DNA of 64,000 nt from Symbiobacterium sp. (lineage in GTDB: Bacteria > Bacillota > Sulfobacillia > DUSP01 > DYEP01), in assembly GCA_020725675.1 (NCBI GenBank), contig DYEP01000006.1:12160-76159 (forward strand). The letters are read 5' to 3'. The translations under genes and the position numbers were made by a program. Below the pieces are notes generated by a model. It saw nothing but the letters and a program-made list of their open reading frames with translations, was not told the DNA's origin and ran no database searches. Shown piece by piece: positions 13,534 to 42,010 of this stretch (the first letter of the stretch is position 1; every line of letters starts with the position of its first letter).

Positions 13534-13627
13534 AGGCCCTGTCTCCTCCCACTTCTACCCACTTTCCCCCACTCGGTGTAGTACTTCTACCACTATGCGG
13601 AAATTCCTTCTTTACTTTGCATCCGAA

Positions 13628-13660
13628 GGAAAAAATTTCAGGCCCGGGGATCCGGGCCTG
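13628..13660 (-). terminator. rho-independent terminator (minus strand) upstream of the mraZ promoter region
   Basis: GGCCCGG-GGAT-CCGGGCC hairpin followed on the minus strand by AAATTTTTTCC. Confidence 0.55.
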
Positions 13661-13690
13661 AACGGAACTTTTATTATGACGTGATCAAAT

Positions 13691-13873
13691 TTAAACGGGC
13701 ACTGTCTGAACCTTTGAGTAAAGACTCAACAGGGAAATCCTTTTTCCGCACTTGGGACACTGGAGTTCGTTGACTCCAGGCCCGCCGGTTAAGGATTTCC
13801 CTGTTGAAAGCTGGGTCCCCTGCGCCCCGCAACGTGGGCACACGAATTGCACCACCTGATGGCTCCCACTCAA
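13691..13873 (-). CDS. hypothetical 60-aa zinc-ribbon protein (CPRCG...CPKCG); may instead be part of a structured RNA
   Basis: ORF contains two CxxC pairs, but it also contains a perfect 13-bp inverted repeat with a nested 7-bp hairpin, so coding status is uncertain. Confidence 0.25.
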   Translation of the reverse strand: MSGSHQVVQFVCPRCGAQGTQLSTGKSLTGGPGVNELQCPKCGKRISLLSLYSKVQTVPV

Positions 13874-13935
13874 TTTGTGATGCCTCCCTGAGGTTCGTTT
13901 GTCAAAACACTTCGAGATCTAACCTCTTGACTCCT

Positions 13936-14754
13936 TCATGTGGCCATTGGAAAACTCCCAAGAACGCGAAGCGAAACTGTTTTAGTGCTGAGTTCCGAAA
14001 TCGCCTCAACCAACGAAGAGTCAGACATGTGAGCAGCGACATCTAGGTAAAAAAGATATTCCCACGGCCTGTCTCCAATGGGCCTTGACTCTAATTTAAG
14101 CAGGTTGATCTGTCTGTATGCAAAAGCGCCCAGCACCCAAAAAAGTGCAGCAGGCCTGTGCGCCGTTGCCAGCACCAGCACCGTCTTATTCTTCTCTCCA
14201 CGGGGAACCTCGCGCGTGCCTATGGCGTAAAACCGCGTGTAGTTGTTTGCTCTTGATTGAACCCCTCTTGCCAAAACAGTAAGACCATAAAGTTCGGCTG
14301 CCCTCTCAGAAGCGAGGGCTGCGGCATGTTCCATGCGTTCCATCGCGATCATGCGGGCACTGCCCGCAGTATCATAAACCGCCACCGCTTCGACACCGAG
14401 CTCCTTCAAGAATTCACTGCACTGAGCAAGCGCTTGCGGGTGAGAGTATACCCGCCTTATGCTGTCCAGGGTGGCACCTTTGGGGGCAAGTAAGCAGTGA
14501 TTTACTGGCAATACAACCTCCCCGAAGATCCTAAATGGGTAAAGGAGCAAGAGATCGTAGCTTTCGTTGATACTACCCGCGAGAGAGTTTTCGATGGGTA
14601 TTAGGCCGTCAGTAGCCTTGTGCTGGGCGAGCGCTTCAAACACATCAGACAGCGTCCGGCAGGGATAGGTCTTCACCTCCCCGAACATCTTGATCACCGC
14701 TTCTTCACTATATGCTCCGGGCTCCCCCTGAAAGGCTACTATCGTTTCTTCCAT
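13936..14754 (-). CDS. pheA: prephenate dehydratase (PDT domain + C-terminal ACT domain)
   Basis: 272 aa; PDT-domain conserved blocks and ACT regulatory domain ending ...LRVLGSFP. Confidence 0.85.
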   Translation of the reverse strand: MEETIVAFQGEPGAYSEEAVIKMFGEVKTYPCRTLSDVFEALAQHKATDGLIPIENSLAGSINESYDLLLLYPFRIFGEVVLPVNHCLLAPKGATLDSIRRVYSHPQALAQCSEFLKELGVEAVAVYDTAGSARMIAMERMEHAAALASERAAELYGLTVLARGVQSRANNYTRFYAIGTREVPRGEKNKTVLVLATAHRPAALFWVLGAFAYRQINLLKLESRPIGDRPWEYLFYLDVAAHMSDSSLVEAISELSTKTVSLRVLGSFPMAT

Positions 14755-14920
14755 ACTGTCCTACCTCTCCTAGTAGTTACTAGTAGTCACGTGTTGCAAC
14801 AAGTGTAGCACAACAACTCGGATAGGGAAAGCCCCATGCAAGAAACTTATCCTCGGCCCTTTGGGTGTCCCGTCAGCCCGGTCCGTTCAAAGATCACGGA
14901 TCACGTCCCTGCGCCAAAAG

Positions 14921-14958
14921 AAAATAGCAGGAACTTTTCCTGCTATTTCCCGTTTTTC
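14921..14958. terminator. bidirectional rho-independent terminator
   Basis: AATAGCAGGAA-ctt-TTCCTGCTATT hairpin flanked by A-run upstream and TCCCGTTTTT downstream. Confidence 0.6.
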
Positions 14959-15086
14959 GGTTCAACTCTGGGAGGTTTGGACGGCTGGGAACTGATGTCC
15001 TTTCCGCAGTAAGGGCAGATCCAAACCCCTCGCTCCGTAGCGGAATAGGAGTCGTTCCGACAGTAAGGGCACTCCTTCCTAAACAC
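14943..15086 (-). CDS. hypothetical 47-aa zinc-ribbon protein (not in ORF track, below size cutoff)
   Basis: Manual translation: (GTG)MFRKECPYCRNDSYSATERGVWICPYCGKDISSQPSKPPRVEPKNGK*; GAGGA SD 5 nt upstream of GTG; stop codon lies in the terminator stem. Confidence 0.35.
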   Translation of the reverse strand: MFRKECPYCRNDSYSATERGVWICPYCGKDISSQPSKPPRVEPKNGK

Positions 15087-15158
15087 AGAAGTCCTCAACG
15101 CCTTCCAAATCTACTTTGAACCGCTTCGCTATGCCTCTCCTCGGCGAGGACACCGCTC

Positions 15159-15509
15159 TTAGCCCTCAACGACCTCGGAGAAGTAAATCACTGTAACTAA
15201 CTCGTCCGGGGATATTTCCCTCATATAAATCTCTTTCAGGAAATCCATTGCATCATCGATGGTCTTCATGTCAGGGTTTTCGCCCTGGAGGTCCTCGGGA
15301 GTGAGCTCTGAAACAGTCTTCACCGTCACCTTGTCCAGGACGGCCGTGCACAGCTTCTTCCTAGGACGAAACCTGTCTCCGTGAGTCACCCAAACAAGGT
15401 CTCCCACCGCATATTTGGAGGTCTTATCTCCGAGCCTTATTGTACAGTGTTTTTCTCCAGCCAGTATGTTGACGTGATAGACGGATGAGTAAAAATTAAG
15501 TGCCCTCAA
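15159..15509 (-). CDS. ASCH domain-containing protein (PUA-like fold)
   Basis: 116 aa; ILAGEKHCTIRLGDK...GDLVWV matches ASCH GxKxxTxR core. Confidence 0.55.
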   Translation of the reverse strand: MRALNFYSSVYHVNILAGEKHCTIRLGDKTSKYAVGDLVWVTHGDRFRPRKKLCTAVLDKVTVKTVSELTPEDLQGENPDMKTIDDAMDFLKEIYMREISPDELVTVIYFSEVVEG

Positions 15510-15604
15510 ACGCCTCTCACCTCCCCCACCGATGGCTTCTGATTAACTTCAACAACACCGCAACAATTCCTTCCTGAACATCTCTCTCCAGACTTTTTCA
15601 GAAT

Positions 15605-32413: not shown

Positions 32414-33214
32414 CTAAAGTCCTTTCAATGCTAATACTTCTTTTGCCGGAGTTCTGTCACCCTTGCAGCTGATCATGCGGGGCGCATCCAGAAATACTAT
32501 TTTGAATCCATGGCTCTGATACAATTGTATAATACGATCCGTCGCCTGGTTGGATAGGACTACAGGCCCCGAATGCCGGGCCAGCCAAGCGGCTAGACGG
32601 GTCTGGTCCTCCCAGCCGAATCCATCCTTGGAATACTGGGTAAATTCCACATCATACGGAGGATCGGCGTATACAAAGTCATTCTCGTTGAGGACAAGAC
32701 TCTCAAAGTCACTGCAGGAGAACTCCCACTGGCTAAGTACCTGCCGATAGGGTTGGTGGTCACGCACGTAGTTTATAGCACGGTATCTGCCAAATGGAAC
32801 GTTAAACTCCCCTTTTTTGTTGAAACGGCACAGTCCGTTATAGCCCGTTCGGTTAAGATAATAAAACAGTTCGGCTGATTCCTTGGTTTTTTCTTTTCCT
32901 TCCTTGACAAGCCGGTTGAAACGTTCGCGGTGAGCATAGTAAAGGGTCTTATCATTCTCCATGGGGATTGTAATGTACAGGCCCCTCTGCACCCACCGGA
33001 AAAAGTTGATCACGTGTATATTAATATCGTTCAACAGCGCCCTTTTCGGCATTAGACCCAAGGTTACCGATAGGCCGCCACATAGCGGCTCGACTAATCT
33101 CAGGCTCGAATAGGGCTCCCAAAGAGGCTTCAGGTGGGGGACCAACCACCGTTTTCCCCCAGCCCACTTCAGCGGTGGCCCCAGACCGCGGACATAAATG
33201 CCGTTTGCCTTCAT
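32414..33214 (-). CDS. dam: DNA adenine methyltransferase, Dam/D12 class (N6-adenine MTase)
   Basis: LKWAGGKRWL (SAM-binding motif I) near N-terminus and DPPY catalytic motif (VYADPPYD); start moved to MKANGIYV... (track N-extension of 10 aa). No adjacent restriction endonuclease. Confidence 0.8.
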   Translation of the reverse strand: MKANGIYVRGLGPPLKWAGGKRWLVPHLKPLWEPYSSLRLVEPLCGGLSVTLGLMPKRALLNDINIHVINFFRWVQRGLYITIPMENDKTLYYAHRERFNRLVKEGKEKTKESAELFYYLNRTGYNGLCRFNKKGEFNVPFGRYRAINYVRDHQPYRQVLSQWEFSCSDFESLVLNENDFVYADPPYDVEFTQYSKDGFGWEDQTRLAAWLARHSGPVVLSNQATDRIIQLYQSHGFKIVFLDAPRMISCKGDRTPAKEVLALKGL

Positions 33215-33323
33215 GTCATGACTCCTAACGCCCGGTTTCCGCAAGAACGGACAAAGCCGGGATCTTTCACATCAGCATTACGCCGAGTGCACTCCTGCTC
33301 CAGCGCGTACGGCCTGTTCACTC

Positions 33324-37609: not shown

Positions 37610-38323
37610 TTAAAGTACCGGAACCGGAGGCATCCTCCGCTTGTGCTCGCTTAATCTGTGCCTCTTGTCTATGATCTGTTGCACTTGGGGTTCAGCATCT
37701 CCGGTCAACAAATATCTGTCAAGCTCCTTGTATGTAAGACCCATTTCCCCCTCGTCCGTCTGACCTGGCCATAACCCGGCTGAGGGTACCCTGTTCACAA
37801 TCCGCTCAGGGATGCCGAGGTACGACGCAAGCCGCCGAACCTCTTCTTTAACTAAACCTCCAAGCGGCAGAAGGTCCACCGCCCCGTCACCATGTTTTGT
37901 AAAGTATCCCACGTGTATCTCTGACCTGTTACCCGTACCCACCACGAGGGATCTGCGCCTTGCAGCCACATGGTAAAGGGTGATCATGCGCAGCCTTGGC
38001 CTTATGTTGGCCTGCACCAGGTCTCCACACGTGGCTGACTCATCCAACGTCTCAAGAAACCGGTCAAAAACGGGTGTCAGGTCCACCATGAGCCGCTCTG
38101 CGCCTACCGTACGGATCACAAGTTCGGCATCCTCCACATCCTCTGCCGCGCTGTGGCACGGCATGATGACGCCAGTTACACAGCCTGGAGTAGCCCTCGC
38201 GCACAAGGCGAGCACCGCGGCGGAGTCCACTCCACCGCTGACGCCCACTACGGTCCCCTGCGCACCGGCCTCCTCCACGTGTTCGGCTATCCATTTGACC
38301 AGCCTGTCCGCTATTTCTTTCAT
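37610..38323 (-). CDS. nadE: NH3-dependent NAD+ synthetase
   Basis: 237 aa; N-type ATP-PPase SGGVDSA motif, overall NadE size and blocks. Confidence 0.8.
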   Translation of the reverse strand: MKEIADRLVKWIAEHVEEAGAQGTVVGVSGGVDSAAVLALCARATPGCVTGVIMPCHSAAEDVEDAELVIRTVGAERLMVDLTPVFDRFLETLDESATCGDLVQANIRPRLRMITLYHVAARRRSLVVGTGNRSEIHVGYFTKHGDGAVDLLPLGGLVKEEVRRLASYLGIPERIVNRVPSAGLWPGQTDEGEMGLTYKELDRYLLTGDAEPQVQQIIDKRHRLSEHKRRMPPVPVL

Positions 38324-38733
38324 CGCTTCACCACCAATCCCGTCCTCTTCAGTGTGCCTTGGGATGCCTCGTAAATGTGCATTTCCCGCTGCTCCAAGGA
38401 GGCGATGATGTACAAATAACCCGGGTAAGTGAGTAAGGCCAGATCTCTTTCAGAAGGGAATGCAGACCCCCTGGGGTGGGAGTGAAACACCGCTATCAGA
38501 TCGTGGCCTCGCAGCTGGGCACCATTAATGGCCGCCAACTGGTCTTCTGGGTGCATCAGAAAAGAGTTCTCGTCTTTGCTTACGTTTCGGGCTTTCCAGA
38601 AGACCGAAAAACGCCTCCCTTTACCGGTAACCATCCCGCATGCCTCGCCGGGCGCTGCAGCCACAGCAGCTTTCCACAGTGCGCCGTAGAGCGCTTCGCT
38701 CAAGCAGTAAGTTTTCTCACACGGAGTTTCCAT
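38320..38733 (-). CDS. JAMM/MPN+ metalloisopeptidase (Mov34 family; Mec+/QbsD-like)
   Basis: 137 aa; catalytic Glu (GEACGMV) and intact JAMM motif HSHPRGSAFPSERD (HxHx7Sx2D). Confidence 0.8.
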   Translation of the reverse strand: METPCEKTYCLSEALYGALWKAAVAAAPGEACGMVTGKGRRFSVFWKARNVSKDENSFLMHPEDQLAAINGAQLRGHDLIAVFHSHPRGSAFPSERDLALLTYPGYLYIIASLEQREMHIYEASQGTLKRTGLVVKR

Positions 38734-38942
38734 TCACCTGGTCCCACCTGCTCTATTCCGTAAACTTGCTGGCCTTCCATGGTAAAATTGCGCCTTAGAT
38801 TGTCCACCGCCGGCGCGTAATCGATAAGTACGAGCATCACCTGCTGCGGTTTCAGGTCCTCCAAAGTAATCCGCGCCTTGATGTAGGTCATTGGGCACTT
38901 GTCTCCCCTTATGTCACAAAGCACGTCGTACTCTTCATCCAT
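38700..38942 (-). CDS. TusA-like sulfur carrier / two-layered alpha-beta sandwich protein
   Basis: 80 aa; N-terminal Cys in CPMTY (TusA CPxP-type motif) followed by typical TusA secondary-structure pattern. Confidence 0.6.
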   Translation of the reverse strand: MDEEYDVLCDIRGDKCPMTYIKARITLEDLKPQQVMLVLIDYAPAVDNLRRNFTMEGQQVYGIEQVGPGEWKLRVRKLTA

Positions 38943-38948
38943 ACGGGC

Positions 38949-39752
38949 TCACCCCCGATTGCCCTTTTGACAACCATTGTATGTCGGGCGTGCGACAGCG
39001 TCCCGCGTTCCTTCGCGGCAGGGGCAGCCTGGATCTGGCTGCACCTCGACCTCCATGAACTCCATCGATAGTCCGTTGAATAGGATCAGCCTGCCTGACA
39101 GCGTTCGCCCGGCATCGAGTAGTATCTTGAGGACTTCAAGTGCCTGTATGGATCCTATGACCCCGGGTACCGCACCCAGCACCCCAACCTGGGCGCACGT
39201 GGGCATGAGGTCAGGCGGGGGGGCCGCAGGATATATGCAGCGGTAACACGGGCCTCCACCTCCAAACACAGTAACTTGCCCTTCGAACCGAAATATGCTA
39301 CCGTGAACCATGTACTTGCCCGCCCTCACACACGCGTCGTTCATAATATACCGGGCGGCAAAATTGTCGGTAGCATCTACCACCACATCATACTCGCCAA
39401 CGAGCGCGTCAGCATTCTCCTCGCTCAGCATACACTGGTGAACAGAAACGGTGATATCCGGATTGAGCGCAAGCAGTTTCTCACGTGCTGAGAAGACCTT
39501 TTGCCGACCGATGTCTCTTGTGGAGTGAAGGATCTGCCTTTGCAAGTTCGAAAGGTCTACAACATCGCCATCGACCAAGCCTATCCTTCCTACTCCGGCC
39601 GCTGCCAGATAGTAGCTGACAGGGGAACCGAGGCCTCCTGTGCCCACTACAAGCACGCTGGAGTTGAGCAGTCTTATCTGGCCCCGTTTCCCTACCTGGT
39701 CAAGAACGATGTTCCGCGAGTACCTCAGCACCTGTTCCTCAGAGAGTGTCAC
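38949..39752 (-). CDS. moeB: E1-like adenylyltransferase ThiF/MoeB family (sulfur-carrier-protein activating enzyme)
   Basis: 267 aa; LVVGTGGLGSPVSYYLAAAGVG Rossmann/ATP motif, two CxxC pairs near C-terminus. Confidence 0.85.
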   Translation of the reverse strand: MTLSEEQVLRYSRNIVLDQVGKRGQIRLLNSSVLVVGTGGLGSPVSYYLAAAGVGRIGLVDGDVVDLSNLQRQILHSTRDIGRQKVFSAREKLLALNPDITVSVHQCMLSEENADALVGEYDVVVDATDNFAARYIMNDACVRAGKYMVHGSIFRFEGQVTVFGGGGPCYRCIYPAAPPPDLMPTCAQVGVLGAVPGVIGSIQALEVLKILLDAGRTLSGRLILFNGLSMEFMEVEVQPDPGCPCREGTRDAVARPTYNGCQKGNRG

Positions 39753-41491
39753 GTCCTGTCGCCCCCCTTGAAAACCTTCAGGCTCCGCATTCTTGAAATA
39801 GCATACAGCACATCCTCAGGTCTTGGCATGACGTAGTCGCCCTCGGGAGCAGAAAAGGGCGACAACATCTCAAGACCTGATCTCTCCATTTCCTTGTACG
39901 CCCTGAAGATTCCTTCCGTCAGCGAGGTACGACCATCGAACACGTTCTCCGACAGGTAATGTATGAGGTCTCCGAGCGCACGCACCTGCCCGGGGTCCAC
40001 GATCTGTTCGATGCAGGATAACACCACTTCCTGCTCTCCGAACACAAGGTTTCCGCCTCTTTCCGTGATCTTCACCTTCCTGCCGCGGTATGGGTTAAAG
40101 CTCTCTGGGTAAGGTATTCGCCCAGCCGGCCGGGCCAGCGGACGGCCGCGCACAGACCAATCGGCGCTGCGCAGTTCCTCGCCTATGCGGCGAGCCTGCG
40201 CAGATACATCCAATACGCGATAATTCTCGCACATGATCACTGTATCCGCCACTCCCAAATAGAGTCCGGAACCGCCCATGACTAACACGGTGGATACCCC
40301 GAGTGTTTCGTAAAGCTCCCGCACCCGGTAAAGGAACGGGGTAATAGGCTCTTTGTCATCACTGACAAGCCTTCGCATGTACTCATCCCTGATCATGAAG
40401 TTGGTCGCGCAGGTGTCCTCATCCATTAGCAGTGTCTTCGTTCCCGCTTCGATCGCCTCCATGATGTTCGCAGCCTGGGACGTAGAACCCGACGCGTTTT
40501 CTGTACAAAAAGCGGTGGTATCCTCCCCGCTCGGAAGCCCGCTGATAAATGGTGAAATGTCCACTCTCTCGATGCGCCTTCCGTCCTCTGCCCTCACCTT
40601 TGTCGCCGAGCGTTCAGTGATGACCATTTCTCTGCCGTCACCGGGGATGTGGTTGTATACACCTCGCTCAAGCGCCTTAAGCAGCGTAGATTTACCATGG
40701 TAACCGCCTCCCACAATAATCGTTACGCCGCGCGGAATGCCCATACCAGTAACGGCTCCCGCATGCGGGGTATGAATGGTAACCTGAAGTGTGTCCGGAG
40801 TCTTAAAAGCAACGGCCCTCTCCCGGCTCATCGGTAGATCAGAGATTCCGCTCTCTCTTGCCAGCACAGCTCCGTTAGCGACAAAGGCAACCAAACCGAG
40901 TCTATCCAAAGCCTCGCGTATGGCCTCCTGGTCCTCGTACAAGTCTGCAGCCCTCTTGAGCGCACGCTTGTCCAAAGCTGCGTAAAAGAGGCATGCAGAA
41001 GCGATCTCCCTGATTTCAAAAAAGAACATTTGAATCGCCTGCCTGCCCAGCACTCTTCGGCCGTCTGCAGGCAGCCCGACGCGGAGGCGCGCCTCGACCC
41101 AGTGCTCGGTCATTCTCACGGAGGTACGTTCTAGCACCTCCTGCCCGCATTTCATGCAATAAATGGCTCCGGATCTCCCAGACCCCCGTTTGCTTCTTGA
41201 TATCTGGGATATGGCTTTGCCCAGCATTCGGGTGATGTAGTCCTCGCACGCGATGCGTCTTGATCGATTGGACCAGTACTCGCTTGGGAAATCCATCCCG
41301 GCGGTACGCAGCCTAATCCGGCTTGGAGCAGCAAACGGATCTGCCTGTACCTGGTCTATGTACAGGGTATAGTCGCCGAAATCGTACGCGCCTTTGATAT
41401 CTTTGTAAGCGGGGTAGCCCTTCCCGTCAATGCGCATTAGCTCCGTTTCGAGCTTGGTCTTGTCAAATACCGTCATCTTCTCCCTCGTCAT
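39749..41491 (-). CDS. ABC-class ATPase domain protein (Pfam ABC_ATPase / MRB1590-like), function unknown
   Basis: 580 aa; Walker A IIVGGGYHGKSTLL embedded in a large non-transporter protein; family assignment from recall of the predicted ATPase of the ABC class. Confidence 0.55.
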   Translation of the reverse strand: MTREKMTVFDKTKLETELMRIDGKGYPAYKDIKGAYDFGDYTLYIDQVQADPFAAPSRIRLRTAGMDFPSEYWSNRSRRIACEDYITRMLGKAISQISRSKRGSGRSGAIYCMKCGQEVLERTSVRMTEHWVEARLRVGLPADGRRVLGRQAIQMFFFEIREIASACLFYAALDKRALKRAADLYEDQEAIREALDRLGLVAFVANGAVLARESGISDLPMSRERAVAFKTPDTLQVTIHTPHAGAVTGMGIPRGVTIIVGGGYHGKSTLLKALERGVYNHIPGDGREMVITERSATKVRAEDGRRIERVDISPFISGLPSGEDTTAFCTENASGSTSQAANIMEAIEAGTKTLLMDEDTCATNFMIRDEYMRRLVSDDKEPITPFLYRVRELYETLGVSTVLVMGGSGLYLGVADTVIMCENYRVLDVSAQARRIGEELRSADWSVRGRPLARPAGRIPYPESFNPYRGRKVKITERGGNLVFGEQEVVLSCIEQIVDPGQVRALGDLIHYLSENVFDGRTSLTEGIFRAYKEMERSGLEMLSPFSAPEGDYVMPRPEDVLYAISRMRSLKVFKGGDRT

Positions 41492-41915
41492 ACTCGATGA
41501 TTTCCACTACCCTGGGGCGGAATCTCCCTTCCGCTTCCGCTCGTCTGTCGATTCTTCTCAATAGCAAGAACGACAGCAAGAAAAGCACCGCCCCAGCGGC
41601 AGCCGCGGTCCCTTCCGCCGGCAGCGAAAGCCATCTCGCAAGTTGGAATCCAAGTGCAAGCCCGGTTGCTCCCAAGAGTAACGGGAAGATATACACGAGA
41701 AAGGCTGCCTGCAGCATGTACCTGGTCTCAAGGTCCACGCGCACCCGATCTCCCTCTTTTGCTCCCAGTTCATTGACTGCACGAACCAATATTTCGCGGT
41801 CTGGGTGTAGTGCGGACTCCCCACATTTGCCGCAGCTTTTGCACATAGCAGTTCTTTGCATGCGCACTGTGGCATAGACTCCGTCTACAGATACGATTTC
41901 ACCTATGTCCGACAC
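41463..41915 (-). CDS. RseC/MucC-family protein (SoxR-reducing-system-like small membrane protein)
   Basis: 150 aa; N-terminal GEIVSVDGVYATVRMQRTAMCKSCGKCG (CxxCxxC-type) then two TM helices. Confidence 0.45.
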   Translation of the reverse strand: MSDIGEIVSVDGVYATVRMQRTAMCKSCGKCGESALHPDREILVRAVNELGAKEGDRVRVDLETRYMLQAAFLVYIFPLLLGATGLALGFQLARWLSLPAEGTAAAAGAVLFLLSFLLLRRIDRRAEAEGRFRPRVVEIIEYDEGEDDGI

Positions 41916-41972: not shown

Positions 41973-42010
41973 CCAAGACAACAGTCCAGGCCCCCCCTGA
42001 GGGCCTGGAT
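41973..42010 (-). terminator. GC-rich hairpin, probable terminator after yunB
   Basis: CCAGGCCC-cccctga-GGGCCTGG hairpin; weak U-tract. Confidence 0.3.

Follow-up and report, generated by a model that had tools for sequence, protein, structure and literature searches.

The window analysed here, a stretch of 64 kb of DNA, contains five co-directional open reading frames on the minus strand, which were taken from a six-frame ORF list and assigned to families by setting their Pfam scores against the gathering thresholds. They code for an RseC/MucC-family membrane protein (positions 41463-41915, 150 aa; RseC_MucC, 98.4 vs. 24.4), an ABC_ATPase or MRB1590-like ATPase (39749-41476, 575 aa from Met6; ABC_N, ABC_ATPase, and MRB1590_C), a MoeB/ThiF-type E1 adenylyltransferase (38949-39752, 267 aa; ThiF, 268.8 bits), a TusA/SirA-family sulfur carrier (38700-38942, 80 aa; TusA, 53.7 vs. 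28.6), and a JAMM/MPN+ metallopeptidase (38320-38733, 137 aa; Prok-JAB, M67, 70.5 vs. 25). An overlap of 14 nt joins the RseC and ATPase genes and one of 4 nt the ATPase and E1 genes, a gap of 6 nt separates the E1 and TusA genes, and the TusA and JAMM genes overlap by 34 nt, while the stop codon of the JAMM gene overlaps by 4 nt with the start of nadE, coding for NH3-dependent NAD+ synthetase (37610-38323, minus strand; TIGR00552, 239 vs. 63.65). The ORF list and the Pfam matches thus bear out the first-pass annotation, which had described five overlapping or abutting genes running into nadE and had named all five domains correctly, each of them scoring above its threshold.

A terminator-like GC-rich hairpin on the minus strand (41985-42009), consisting of 11 pairs (8/11 G-C) followed by a weak T tail, is located between the stop codon of yunB and the start of rseC and probably delimits the transcription unit on its upstream side, as judged from the sequence. 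Downstream of the JAMM gene, the run goes on through nadE-yebC-bofC with gaps of 33-39 nt, and tight packing at this locus is therefore no evidence of a common function. A synteny block of housekeeping genes (yunB ... nadE-yebC-bofC-ruvCAB) encloses the trio of E1, TusA, and JAMM, and nadE is also syntenic with E1-JAMM pairs in two other loci (L104 and L125), which carry MoeB-JAMM-(LarE)-NadE-YebC. The dN/dS values of 0.05-0.14 obtained for all five genes against a relative of about 90% identity (L002) indicate that they are real genes under purifying selection.

The E1, TusA, and JAMM proteins

The E1 enzyme lacks a rhodanese domain and contains the motifs GTGGLGS (residues 37-43), CYRC (169-172), and CPC (243-245), as well as a conserved Cys186 within PTCAQ. 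It exceeds the cut-off of the NCBIfam MoeB subfamily NF004281 (292.4 vs. 266) and stays below those of the MoeZ (297 vs. 647), UbaA (SAMP-activating; 325 vs. 450 bits), and ThiF equivalogs. Outside the species, the two homologues closest to it (P0133 and P0134) both have ThiF fused to TusA; identity to P0134 amounts to 65% over the E1 domain and, with the Cys motif GD[KR]CPMTYIK kept, to 47% over the TusA domain. About 98 of the best 120 E1 homologues are ThiF-rhodanese fusions, and four are ThiS-ThiF fusions. Among eight contexts of E1s at 58-65% identity, TusA adjoins or is fused to the E1 in six (L083, L171, L088-90, L172, L174, and L175); L088-90 and L174, which are among the nearest E1 relatives, are located in PALP-ThiS-ThiF-sulfite reductase-TusA clusters.

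The 80-aa protein was confirmed as a member of the TusA family by the profile check, which gave no Pfam match to ThiS. It carries a conserved Cys16 within GDKCPMTYIK, shows its best PDB match to TM0983 (1JDQ, E = 3.8e-11), and ends with VRKLTA, without a GG terminus. The suggestion that TusA takes the place of the beta-grasp carrier is not supported, given its C-terminus, its family, and the presence of TusA or rhodanese as C-terminal domain in homologous E1s. Since the nearest E1 homologues have either of these domains at their C-termini, TusA should be regarded as a persulfide donor rather than as an E1 substrate; by sequence, it is a stand-in for the rhodanese domain, not for the carrier. 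The absence of a carrier gene in or beside the operon, as noted in the first-pass annotation, extends over the entire window: of its 878 stop-to-stop ORFs, none matched at E<=10 a ThiS/MoaD/CysO HMM that detects ThiS-like genes in 27 other loci, and the only ORFs of 40-140 aa ending with GG are two embedded in larger genes. The small intergenic ORFs of the window code for ASCH, YajC, and DUF2905 proteins, zinc ribbons, and a ferredoxin, none of them beta-grasp proteins.

The JAMM protein contains the full motif HSHPRGSAFPSERD at residues 84-97 plus Glu30, and the catalytic residues Glu30, His84, His86, Ser94, and Asp97 are invariant in a 41-sequence alignment, so the enzyme is predicted to be catalytically intact, as previously proposed. 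Its PDB matches are 2KKS, 2KCQ, and PfJAMM1, its sole NCBIfam match is the Haloferax desampylase model (64 vs. a cut-off of 130), and its closest representative outside the species shares only 44% identity over the matched stretch. JAMMs from several architectures are about equally distant (60-71 bits), and the substrate class is therefore not assignable from sequence. Among 80 fetched JAMM loci, 15, which stem from metagenomes, have a ThiF-family gene directly upstream of the JAMM gene; the respective proteins comprise about 250-263 aa where complete, several being cut by contig ends, and no ThiS-like ORF occurs in the available flanks of these pairs. Another 24 of the 80 loci are of the CysO/CysM/MoeZ type. 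The trio recurs in identical order in another lineage (L172; PALP-ThiF-(URO-D-TusA)-Prok-JAB), again with no carrier nearby, and the JAMM encoded there is among the best matches outside the species (68.7 bits). Partial arrangements also exist, since TusA and JAMM are both missing beside the E1 of L086, and TusA is missing from the E1-JAMM pairs of L104 and L125.

The ATPase and RseC neighbours

The ATPase ORF reaches position 41491 (580 aa), and the true start is likely Met6 at 41476, which is preceded by a ribosome-binding site (GAGGGAGAAG) and agrees with the homologues of 575 aa. The protein scores 181, 411, and 87 for ABC_N, ABC_ATPase, and MRB1590_C, respectively, and retains the invariant columns of the family together with two intact Walker motifs, GGGYHGKST (A, at 261) and LLMDEDT (B, at 354). 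It thus shares its domain composition with MRB1590, a kRNA-editing factor of T. brucei, and with the bacterial "ABC-class ATPases" of PF09818 (PDB 5D6A, E = 1.7e-126), but unlike MRB1590 it has no RNA-editing context. Neighbourhoods of 80 ABC_ATPase genes from diverse genomes of many phyla were searched with profile HMMs in fetched flanks of up to 10 kb (in 35 of the 80, each side covered 5 kb or more); E1, TusA, JAMM, ThiS, or RseC occurred near none of them, and the family has no conserved neighbour. The RseC protein has a C25-x2-C28-x2-C31 motif near its N-terminus as well as two hydrophobic segments, and falls below the cut-off of the NCBIfam RseC equivalog (37.7 vs. 184). Among about 175 loci fetched, it is present only in L001, L002, and L086, and both ATPase and RseC are absent from the 80 JAMM loci and from all close E1 contexts except L086.

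The identical gene order in L001 and L002 is uninformative, because these are at least 90% identical. Among the loci fetched, L086 is the one more distant relative in which the RseC-ATPase-E1 adjacency is kept, at 61% E1 identity and along with the 4-nt overlap of ATPase and E1, and a lineage-specific functional link is therefore conceivable. However, a frameshift and the loss of residues 162-349, Walker A among them, mark the ATPase of L086 as a likely pseudogene next to an intact E1 and an intact RseC, although an assembly artefact could produce the same picture in this single MAG contig. The recurrent linkage of ABC_ATPase with E1 and JAMM, for which the first-pass annotation had suggested a neighbourhood analysis, was not found in any of the 80 loci, and what stands is the RseC-ATPase-E1 arrangement of L086 with its decayed ATPase. 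The adjacency of the ATPase and RseC genes to the trio seems to be confined to this lineage.

A putative sulfur relay and alternative readings

We consider it probable that the functional unit consists of the three genes for E1, TusA, and JAMM, acting as a sulfur-carrier-protein activation relay, with RseC, ABC_ATPase, NadE, YebC, and BofC standing outside. A sulfur-relay role had already been proposed and is corroborated for the trio by the E1-TusA fusions, the recurrent E1-TusA and E1-JAMM associations, and the arrangement in L172; the domain identities and intact catalytic residues agree with it. By analogy with the biochemistry of the families, from which relay chemistry, carrier identity, and end product are derived, the rhodanese-less E1 would adenylate a MoaD/ThiS/CysO-type beta-grasp carrier at its C-terminal Gly-Gly; the gene for this carrier presumably lies elsewhere in the genome. 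Cys16 of TusA would bear a persulfide originating from a cysteine desulfurase or sulfide and hand the sulfur to the acyl-adenylate, generating the carrier thiocarboxylate and thereby taking over the task of the fused rhodanese domain in MoeZ/MOCS3-type E1s. The JAMM would expose or regenerate the free Gly-Gly end of the carrier, either from a precursor with a C-terminal extension or fusion, which it would trim in the manner of HcyD, QbsD, and DR0402, or from a carrier-product adduct, which it would hydrolyse in the manner of Mec+. Molybdopterin and/or cysteine or homocysteine would be the most likely destination of the sulfur. The remaining genes may be viewed as housekeeping neighbours with the same direction, in a compact run that is probably co-transcribed and would be specific to this spore-forming Bacillota lineage.

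Ub-like conjugation of the SAMP/UbaA/HvJAMM1 or TtuB/TtuC type is an unlikely alternative, in which a distantly encoded Ubl would be passed via an E1 thioester on Cys186 to target lysines, the JAMM would serve as deconjugase, and TusA would supply only a parallel sulfur branch. The UbaA and desampylase scores, the conserved Cys in PTCAQ, and the PfJAMM1 match are in line with this, as are the dual-use systems of Haloferax and Thermus, which operate with carriers encoded elsewhere. Yet both scores lie well below the equivalog cut-offs, the conserved Cys is common to sulfur-only MoeB/ThiF enzymes, neither an E2 nor a Ubl is present, PADLOC yields only generic E1-domain matches, and the close E1 relatives reside in metabolic PALP/ThiS/sulfite-reductase clusters.

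Still less probable is a single non-canonical sulfur-relay or Ub-like modification module of all five genes, where the ATPase and RseC, a redox protein of the membrane, would contribute, e.g., substrate remodelling or reducing power for resolving an acyl-persulfide. The shared direction, the 14-nt and 4-nt overlaps, a terminator-like hairpin solely upstream of rseC, purifying selection on every gene, and the order kept in L001, L002, and partly L086 are compatible with it, but nadE, yebC, and bofC share the same tight run, and the neighbourhood counts of ATPase and RseC together with the L086 pseudogene beside intact E1 and RseC speak against a part of both proteins in the relay. That the trio represents functionally independent housekeeping genes in coincidental adjacency, as the unrelated nadE-yebC-bofC in the same run and the incomplete sets of L086, L104, and L125 might suggest, is hardly credible in view of the E1-TusA fusion proteins, TusA with the E1 clade in six of eight contexts, 15 independent metagenome loci with direct E1-JAMM adjacency, the repeated trio order in L172, and an E1-TusA-JAMM association already in the literature (PMC1779556).

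Comparison with known systems

The JAMM resembles DR0402 of Deinococcus radiodurans, HvJAMM1, and PfJAMM1, which cleave MoaD-MoaE fusions (PMC8832034) or SAMP conjugates, in being small and stand-alone, in its full E...HxH...S..D motif, and in its linkage to a MoeB/UbaA-like E1. The sequence similarity is at family level only (E = 6e-7 for PfJAMM1, and the desampylase score given above), and a fused or extended carrier was not seen. Many E1-rhodanese fusions of the MoeZ/MoeBR/MOCS3/Uba4 type share 55-61% identity with the E1 core, and the logic of adenylation followed by persulfide transfer is shared with these and with the CysO-CysM-Mec+ cysteine pathway of Mycobacterium tuberculosis, which also has a JAMM partner. 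Unlike in the fusions, the persulfide carrier of the window is a separate TusA, the E1 falls far short of the MoeZ equivalog cut-off, and CysO and CysM are not adjacent. Another parallel is the molybdopterin system of E. coli with MoeB, TusA, and IscS, where the E1 is likewise MoeB-like and rhodanese-less, moaD is not next to moeB, and the TusA persulfide is stated to be the sulfur donor for MoaD-COSH (PMC5372717), as it may be for the carrier thiocarboxylate here. In E. coli, however, tusA is not linked to moeB and the system works without a JAMM, whereas TusA and JAMM are tightly ordered with E1 in the window.

Operon type 4e of Iyer, Burroughs and Aravind (2006) combines ThiS/MoaD, JAB, a rhodanese-less E1, and SirA, which is predicted to act like a rhodanese, with sulfate-assimilation genes in low-GC Gram-positives and others (PMC1779556, Table 1). 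The window differs in that a ThiS/MoaD gene is absent from its entire 64 kb, genes for sulfite reductase, a PALP enzyme, or sulfate assimilation are lacking near the trio, and a housekeeping synteny block surrounds the latter. The HcyS/HcyD/HcyF methionine pathway of Wolinella, reportedly described by Krishnamoorthy and Begley in 2011, is said to be the biochemically studied example of type 4e. The designation as non-canonical is not supported, since such operons were already catalogued in 2006 as type 4e and as type 4b, which includes E1+JAB-only derivatives without a carrier gene (PMC1779556, Table 1), and the 15 E1-JAMM pairs likewise have none nearby. With its rhodanese-less E1, its TusA/SirA with the conserved Cys, its JAB/JAMM with active-site residues, its Bacillota host, and the type 4e-like clusters of its nearest E1 relatives, the E1-TusA-JAMM unit corresponds to a sulfur-carrier-protein relay of a type known from earlier work.

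Organization of the gene run and search for a carrier

The span 38320-41915 consists of five co-directional minus-strand open reading frames, as judged from a six-frame ORF list, which code for an RseC-like protein (41463-41915, 150 aa), an MRB1590-like ABC_ATPase of family PF09818 (39749-41491 as ORF, 580 aa), a ThiF/MoeB-type E1 (38949-39752, 267 aa), a TusA protein (38700-38942, 80 aa), and a JAMM peptidase (38320-38733, 137 aa). The true start of the ATPase is most likely Met6 at 41476, as suggested by a GAGGGAGAAG ribosome-binding site in front of it, which would yield a protein of 575 aa as in the homologues. The genes overlap by 14 nt (RseC/ATPase), 4 nt (ATPase/E1), and 34 nt (TusA/JAMM), and 6 nt separate E1 from TusA. 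The JAMM gene overlaps by another 4 nt with nadE (37610-38323, minus strand), which is followed by yebC after a 33-nt gap and bofC after a 39-nt gap. A GC-rich terminator-like hairpin (41985-42009) lies between the run and the upstream yunB gene, while a promoter scan returned no more sites than in shuffled sequence. All domain calls for the five genes exceed the curated Pfam and NCBIfam thresholds, and dN/dS values of 0.05-0.14 in each of them, calculated against a relative at about 90% identity, indicate that they are real genes under selection. Their order is the same in two near relatives, L001 (JGI; 97% identity) and L002 (Logan/NCBI "Bacillota bacterium"; 90%), where the products are named by PGAP as MoeB, TusA family, M67 metallopeptidase, RseC family, and ABC-ATPase domain proteins. 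The presence of YunB and BofC identifies the host as an endospore former.

The first-pass annotation had described a five-gene run devoid of a carrier, i.e., the ThiS/MoaD/CysO-type beta-grasp protein with a Gly-Gly end expected as substrate of E1 and JAMM. This is borne out by the ORF list and the domain profiles, and the absence extends over the whole window: an ORF scan of the 64 kb revealed no plausible ORF ending in GG, and a ThiS/MoaD/CysO HMM gave zero matches at E<=10 when every one of the 878 stop-to-stop ORFs of the window was searched. The same HMM, whose seven seeds (six known carrier sequences, used for sensitivity only, and the ThiS of locus L088) were supplemented with 27 locus hits, recovers ThiS-like genes in 27 other loci. 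We infer that the carrier for E1 and JAMM is encoded elsewhere in the genome. The small intergenic ORFs of the window code for ASCH, YajC, DUF2905, zinc-ribbon, and ferredoxin proteins, with no ThiS-like ORF among them. An unusually gene-poor 2-kb stretch (13540-15600) contains only small zinc-ribbon ORFs (13691-13873 and 14943-15098) and an ASCH-domain ORF (15159-15509), all on the minus strand, as well as an 820-bp gene (13936-14754). A Dam-like DNA methyltransferase (32414-33244, minus strand; MethyltransfD12 in the L001 annotation) is encoded between queH and a DUF2905 gene, with no restriction partner visible.

The E1, TusA, and JAMM proteins

The E1 protein matches PF00899 over the entire profile (positions 1-238 of 238; 268.8 vs. 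a cut-off of 28.1) and passes only the MoeB subfamily model of NCBIfam (NF004281; 292.4 vs. 266). It contains the Gly-rich loop GTGGLGS (37-43), a C169xxC172 pair (CYRC), and the active-site-loop Cys186 in PTCAQ, while the second Cys pair is a CPC at 243-245, representing CxC instead of CxxC. A C-terminal rhodanese domain is absent from its 267 aa (no PF00581 match). Among the best 120 E1 homologues, approximately 98 are E1-rhodanese fusions, 16 consist of E1 alone, four are ThiS-E1 fusions, and two are E1-TusA fusions. The latter two, P0133 (382 aa, L171:1150-2298) and P0134 (414 aa, L083:10001-11245), come closest to the window E1 among homologues from outside the species; both stand alone, with neither carrier nor JAMM adjoining. 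P0134 shares 65% identity with the window proteins in the E1 domain and 47% in the TusA domain, including the motif GD[KR]CPMTYIK. No mention of the ThiF-TusA fusion architecture was found in the literature searched.

The 80-aa protein scores 53.7 against TusA/SirA (PF01206; threshold 28.6), and its CP-motif Cys16 occupies the same alignment position as the Cys in TM0983 and in the fused TusA domains. It had been proposed to sit in the place of the carrier, but a role as E1 substrate is rejected because its C-terminus reads VRKLTA without Gly-Gly, it yields no ThiS match (PF02597) at E<=0.01, and TusA occurs as a C-terminal domain of E1. TusA accompanies this E1 clade in six of eight contexts examined: it is fused to E1 in L083 and L171, and found in the orders PALP-ThiS-ThiF-sulfite reductase-TusA-ThiF2 (L088-90, L174), ThiF-TusA-ThiF2 (L175), and PALP-ThiF-(URO-D-TusA)-Prok-JAB (L172). 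The last of these repeats the window order of ThiF, TusA, and JAMM, with no ThiS within its 5.3-kb contig. Its TusA domain forms the C-terminus of a 413-aa fusion with URO-D (uroporphyrinogen decarboxylase/MtaA-like; L172:3596-4837) between ThiF and Prok-JAB, and the upstream PALP gene is CysK/CysM-like. In L088 (3650-6360), L174, and L175 (1747-3689), two ThiF paralogues flank TusA in the order ThiF-(sulfite reductase)-TusA-ThiF2, and a zinc-ribbon plus PALP enzyme and a ThiS are encoded upstream in L088-90 and L174.

The JAMM protein belongs to the Prok-JAB family (PF14464, M67; 70.5 vs. 25) and carries the catalytic residues Glu30 and HSHPRGSAFPSERD at 84-97 (His84, His86, Ser94, Asp97), which fall in alignment columns invariant across 41 homologues. 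It is otherwise highly diverged, the next representative in a full HMMER search being 44% identical (82 bits). The best matches to the window JAMM, 80 metagenome loci, many of them on short contigs, were retained from a scan that used an alignment of four JAMM sequences. A ThiF-family gene directly precedes JAMM in 15 of these 80 loci; where complete, it codes for about 250-263 aa, and several copies are truncated by the end of the contig. As far as the flanks extend, no ThiS-like ORF accompanies any of the 15. Another 24 loci belong to the CysO/CysM/MoeZ type. Similarity does not assign the JAMM to a substrate class, as it scores 60-71 bits alike against JAMMs from CysO/CysM-type, direct MoeB-JAMM, and stand-alone loci.

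With these domain identities, intact catalytic residues, fusions, and recurrent linkage, the E1-TusA-JAMM trio is a genuine unit. The following steps of its action are deduced from the biochemistry of the families. The E1 would adenylate the terminal Gly-Gly of a beta-grasp carrier whose gene lies elsewhere, and the JAMM may expose or regenerate this end. Mec+, QbsD, and HcyD are precedents for such JAMM activity. Another is DR0402, which acts on MoaD-MoaE (PMC8832034). The TusA Cys16 persulfide is predicted to give the sulfur for the carrier thiocarboxylate, replacing the rhodanese domain of MoeZ/MOCS3; exactly such a sulfur-supply role was predicted by Iyer et al. (PMC1779556) for SirA in those operons in which the E1 "always lacks" rhodanese, and the sulfur donor for MoaD-COSH of E. 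coli is given as TusA (PMC5372717). Sulfur transfer from TusA to an E1-bound carrier gains clean Rosetta-stone support from the E1-TusA fusions. In E. coli, its basis is genetics and in vitro work. The evidence points to no single end product of the relay: the E1 passes the MoeB subfamily model only, its closest relatives belong to clusters of the cysteine or homocysteine type, the JAMM is equally distant from every architecture, and no riboswitch (Moco, TPP, SAM) gives a clue to the pathway, as Rfam returned no family at gathering score anywhere in window positions 1-64000 and no match at E<=1 around the operon. The finding reaches little beyond annotation: the 80-aa protein is to be taken as the persulfide donor of a MoeB/ThiF-type E1, equivalent to a rhodanese, rather than as a carrier stand-in, and the JAMM as a carrier-processing peptidase.

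Genes adjoining the trio

The ATPase exhibits the three-domain architecture PF20446 + PF09818 + PF21117 with intact Walker A and B motifs. The RseC-like protein matches PF04246 (RseC/MucC; 98.4 vs. 24.4) and contains Cys25, Cys28, and Cys31 in an N-terminal cluster and two hydrophobic segments, as read by eye from the sequence. It scores below the SoxR-reducing E. coli equivalog (NF008115; 37.7 vs. 184), and no rnf/rsx genes are among the annotated genes of the window.

Both genes had been counted as parts of the module in the first-pass annotation, a claim which can hardly be upheld, since the pattern in other genomes comes essentially to what that annotation had itself named as its refutation. 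No homologue of ThiF, TusA, JAMM, ThiS, RseC, or NadE was detected by single-sequence searches and profile HMMs in the fetched flanks (up to 10 kb; 5 kb or more on either side in 35 loci and 3 kb or more downstream in 61) of 80 ABC_ATPase loci from diverse genomes (ATPase 46-55% identical), and neither ATPase nor RseC occurs in any of the 80 JAMM loci. Among close E1 contexts, they are found only in the more distant relative L086 (E1 61% identical), in the order yunB ... RseC - ATPase - E1 - yebC - bofC. The ATPase gene has decayed there, as judged by tblastn on this one MAG contig: residues 14-161, 350-425, and 427-579 of the query lie in different frames, and residues 162-349 (approximately), including Walker A, are lost, while RseC and E1 (MoeB) are intact. 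The same locus harbors a short inverted duplicate of ATPase residues 350-384 (L086:2945-4060; GCA_040754315.1, JBFMCS010000053.1). The absence from all 80 loci and the decayed ATPase of L086 indicate that the adjacency of RseC/ATPase and E1 represents lineage-specific synteny. Alternatively, the relay may have enlisted ATPase and RseC in this uncultured spore-forming Bacillota clade, e.g., with RseC supplying electrons for resolving an acyl-persulfide and the ATPase remodelling or loading the carrier. We regard this as very improbable and retain it at all only because of the overlaps of the RseC, ATPase, and E1 genes and because their order survives where E1 identity has dropped to 61%. Were it true, PF09818 would have its first bacterial function. 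Clustering of the neighbours revealed no conserved ATPase partner, the largest cluster being generic response regulators in 9 of the 80 loci, and no gene neighbour of this bacterial and archaeal family is conserved within 4 kb (L003-L082). Genome context will thus not reveal the function of the MRB1590-like ATPases, and the locus is unfit for linking them to ubiquitin-like chemistry.

The position of nadE directly after JAMM is probably a matter of synteny as well. Loci L104 and L125, whose genes were called by homology because longest-ORF calls favour spurious antisense ORFs at their high GC content, display the order MoeB-JAMM-(LarE)-NadE-YebC(-BofC-RuvC), indicating that the E1-JAMM-NadE-YebC synteny is common to a wider spore-former clade. 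In L104 (2931-6205, metagenome contig Ga0315274_10015053; MoeB - JAMM - LarE - NadE - YebC - BofC ... RuvC), a LarE gene (TIGR00268; 253.8 bits vs. a cut-off of 150) is placed between the E1-JAMM pair and NadE. LarE, a PP-loop enzyme, inserts sulfur in the pathway to the nickel-pincer cofactor, which derives from NaAD, and NadE likewise uses NaAD. A thiocarboxylate or persulfide relay could conceivably feed LarE in this organism.

Relation to known sulfur-carrier and conjugation systems

The closest counterpart is the type 4e operon class of Iyer et al. (2006), which likewise combines an E1 without rhodanese, SirA/TusA, and JAB. However, type 4e operons have a ThiS/MoaD-like gene in the neighbourhood, which is missing from the 64 kb of the window, and linked sulfate/sulfite-assimilation or sulfhydrylase genes, whereas the window neighbours are yunB, dppA, nadE, yebC, bofC, and ruvCAB. 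The CysO-CysM-Mec+ pathway differs by its adjoining CysO and CysM (PALP) genes, neither of which lies beside the window genes; 18-24 of the 80 JAMM loci contain both of them, and L172 and L173 include a PALP gene. For a SAMP/UbaA/desampylase system, the scores stay below equivalog level (UbaA, 325 vs. 450; desamp_Halo, 64 vs. 130), and the MoeZ/MoeBR/MOCS3 type is rejected, given that the window E1 lacks a rhodanese domain; its score also falls below the MoeZ equivalog cut-off (297 vs. 647). Anti-phage E1-E2-JAB systems (CBASS Cap2/Cap3, Bil, 6A-MBL) are dismissed, with PADLOC giving partial E1-domain matches only and nothing for JAMM, TusA, ATPase, or RseC, with a score of 50 vs. 320 on the 6A-MBL cap2_3 model of NCBIfam, and with the window containing neither the E2 domain or gene nor the Ubl required by Ub-like conjugation or anti-phage systems. 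The E1-TusA-JAMM trio is a stripped-down member of type 4e/4b, set apart by its lack of a carrier and of assimilation genes and by its housekeeping setting.
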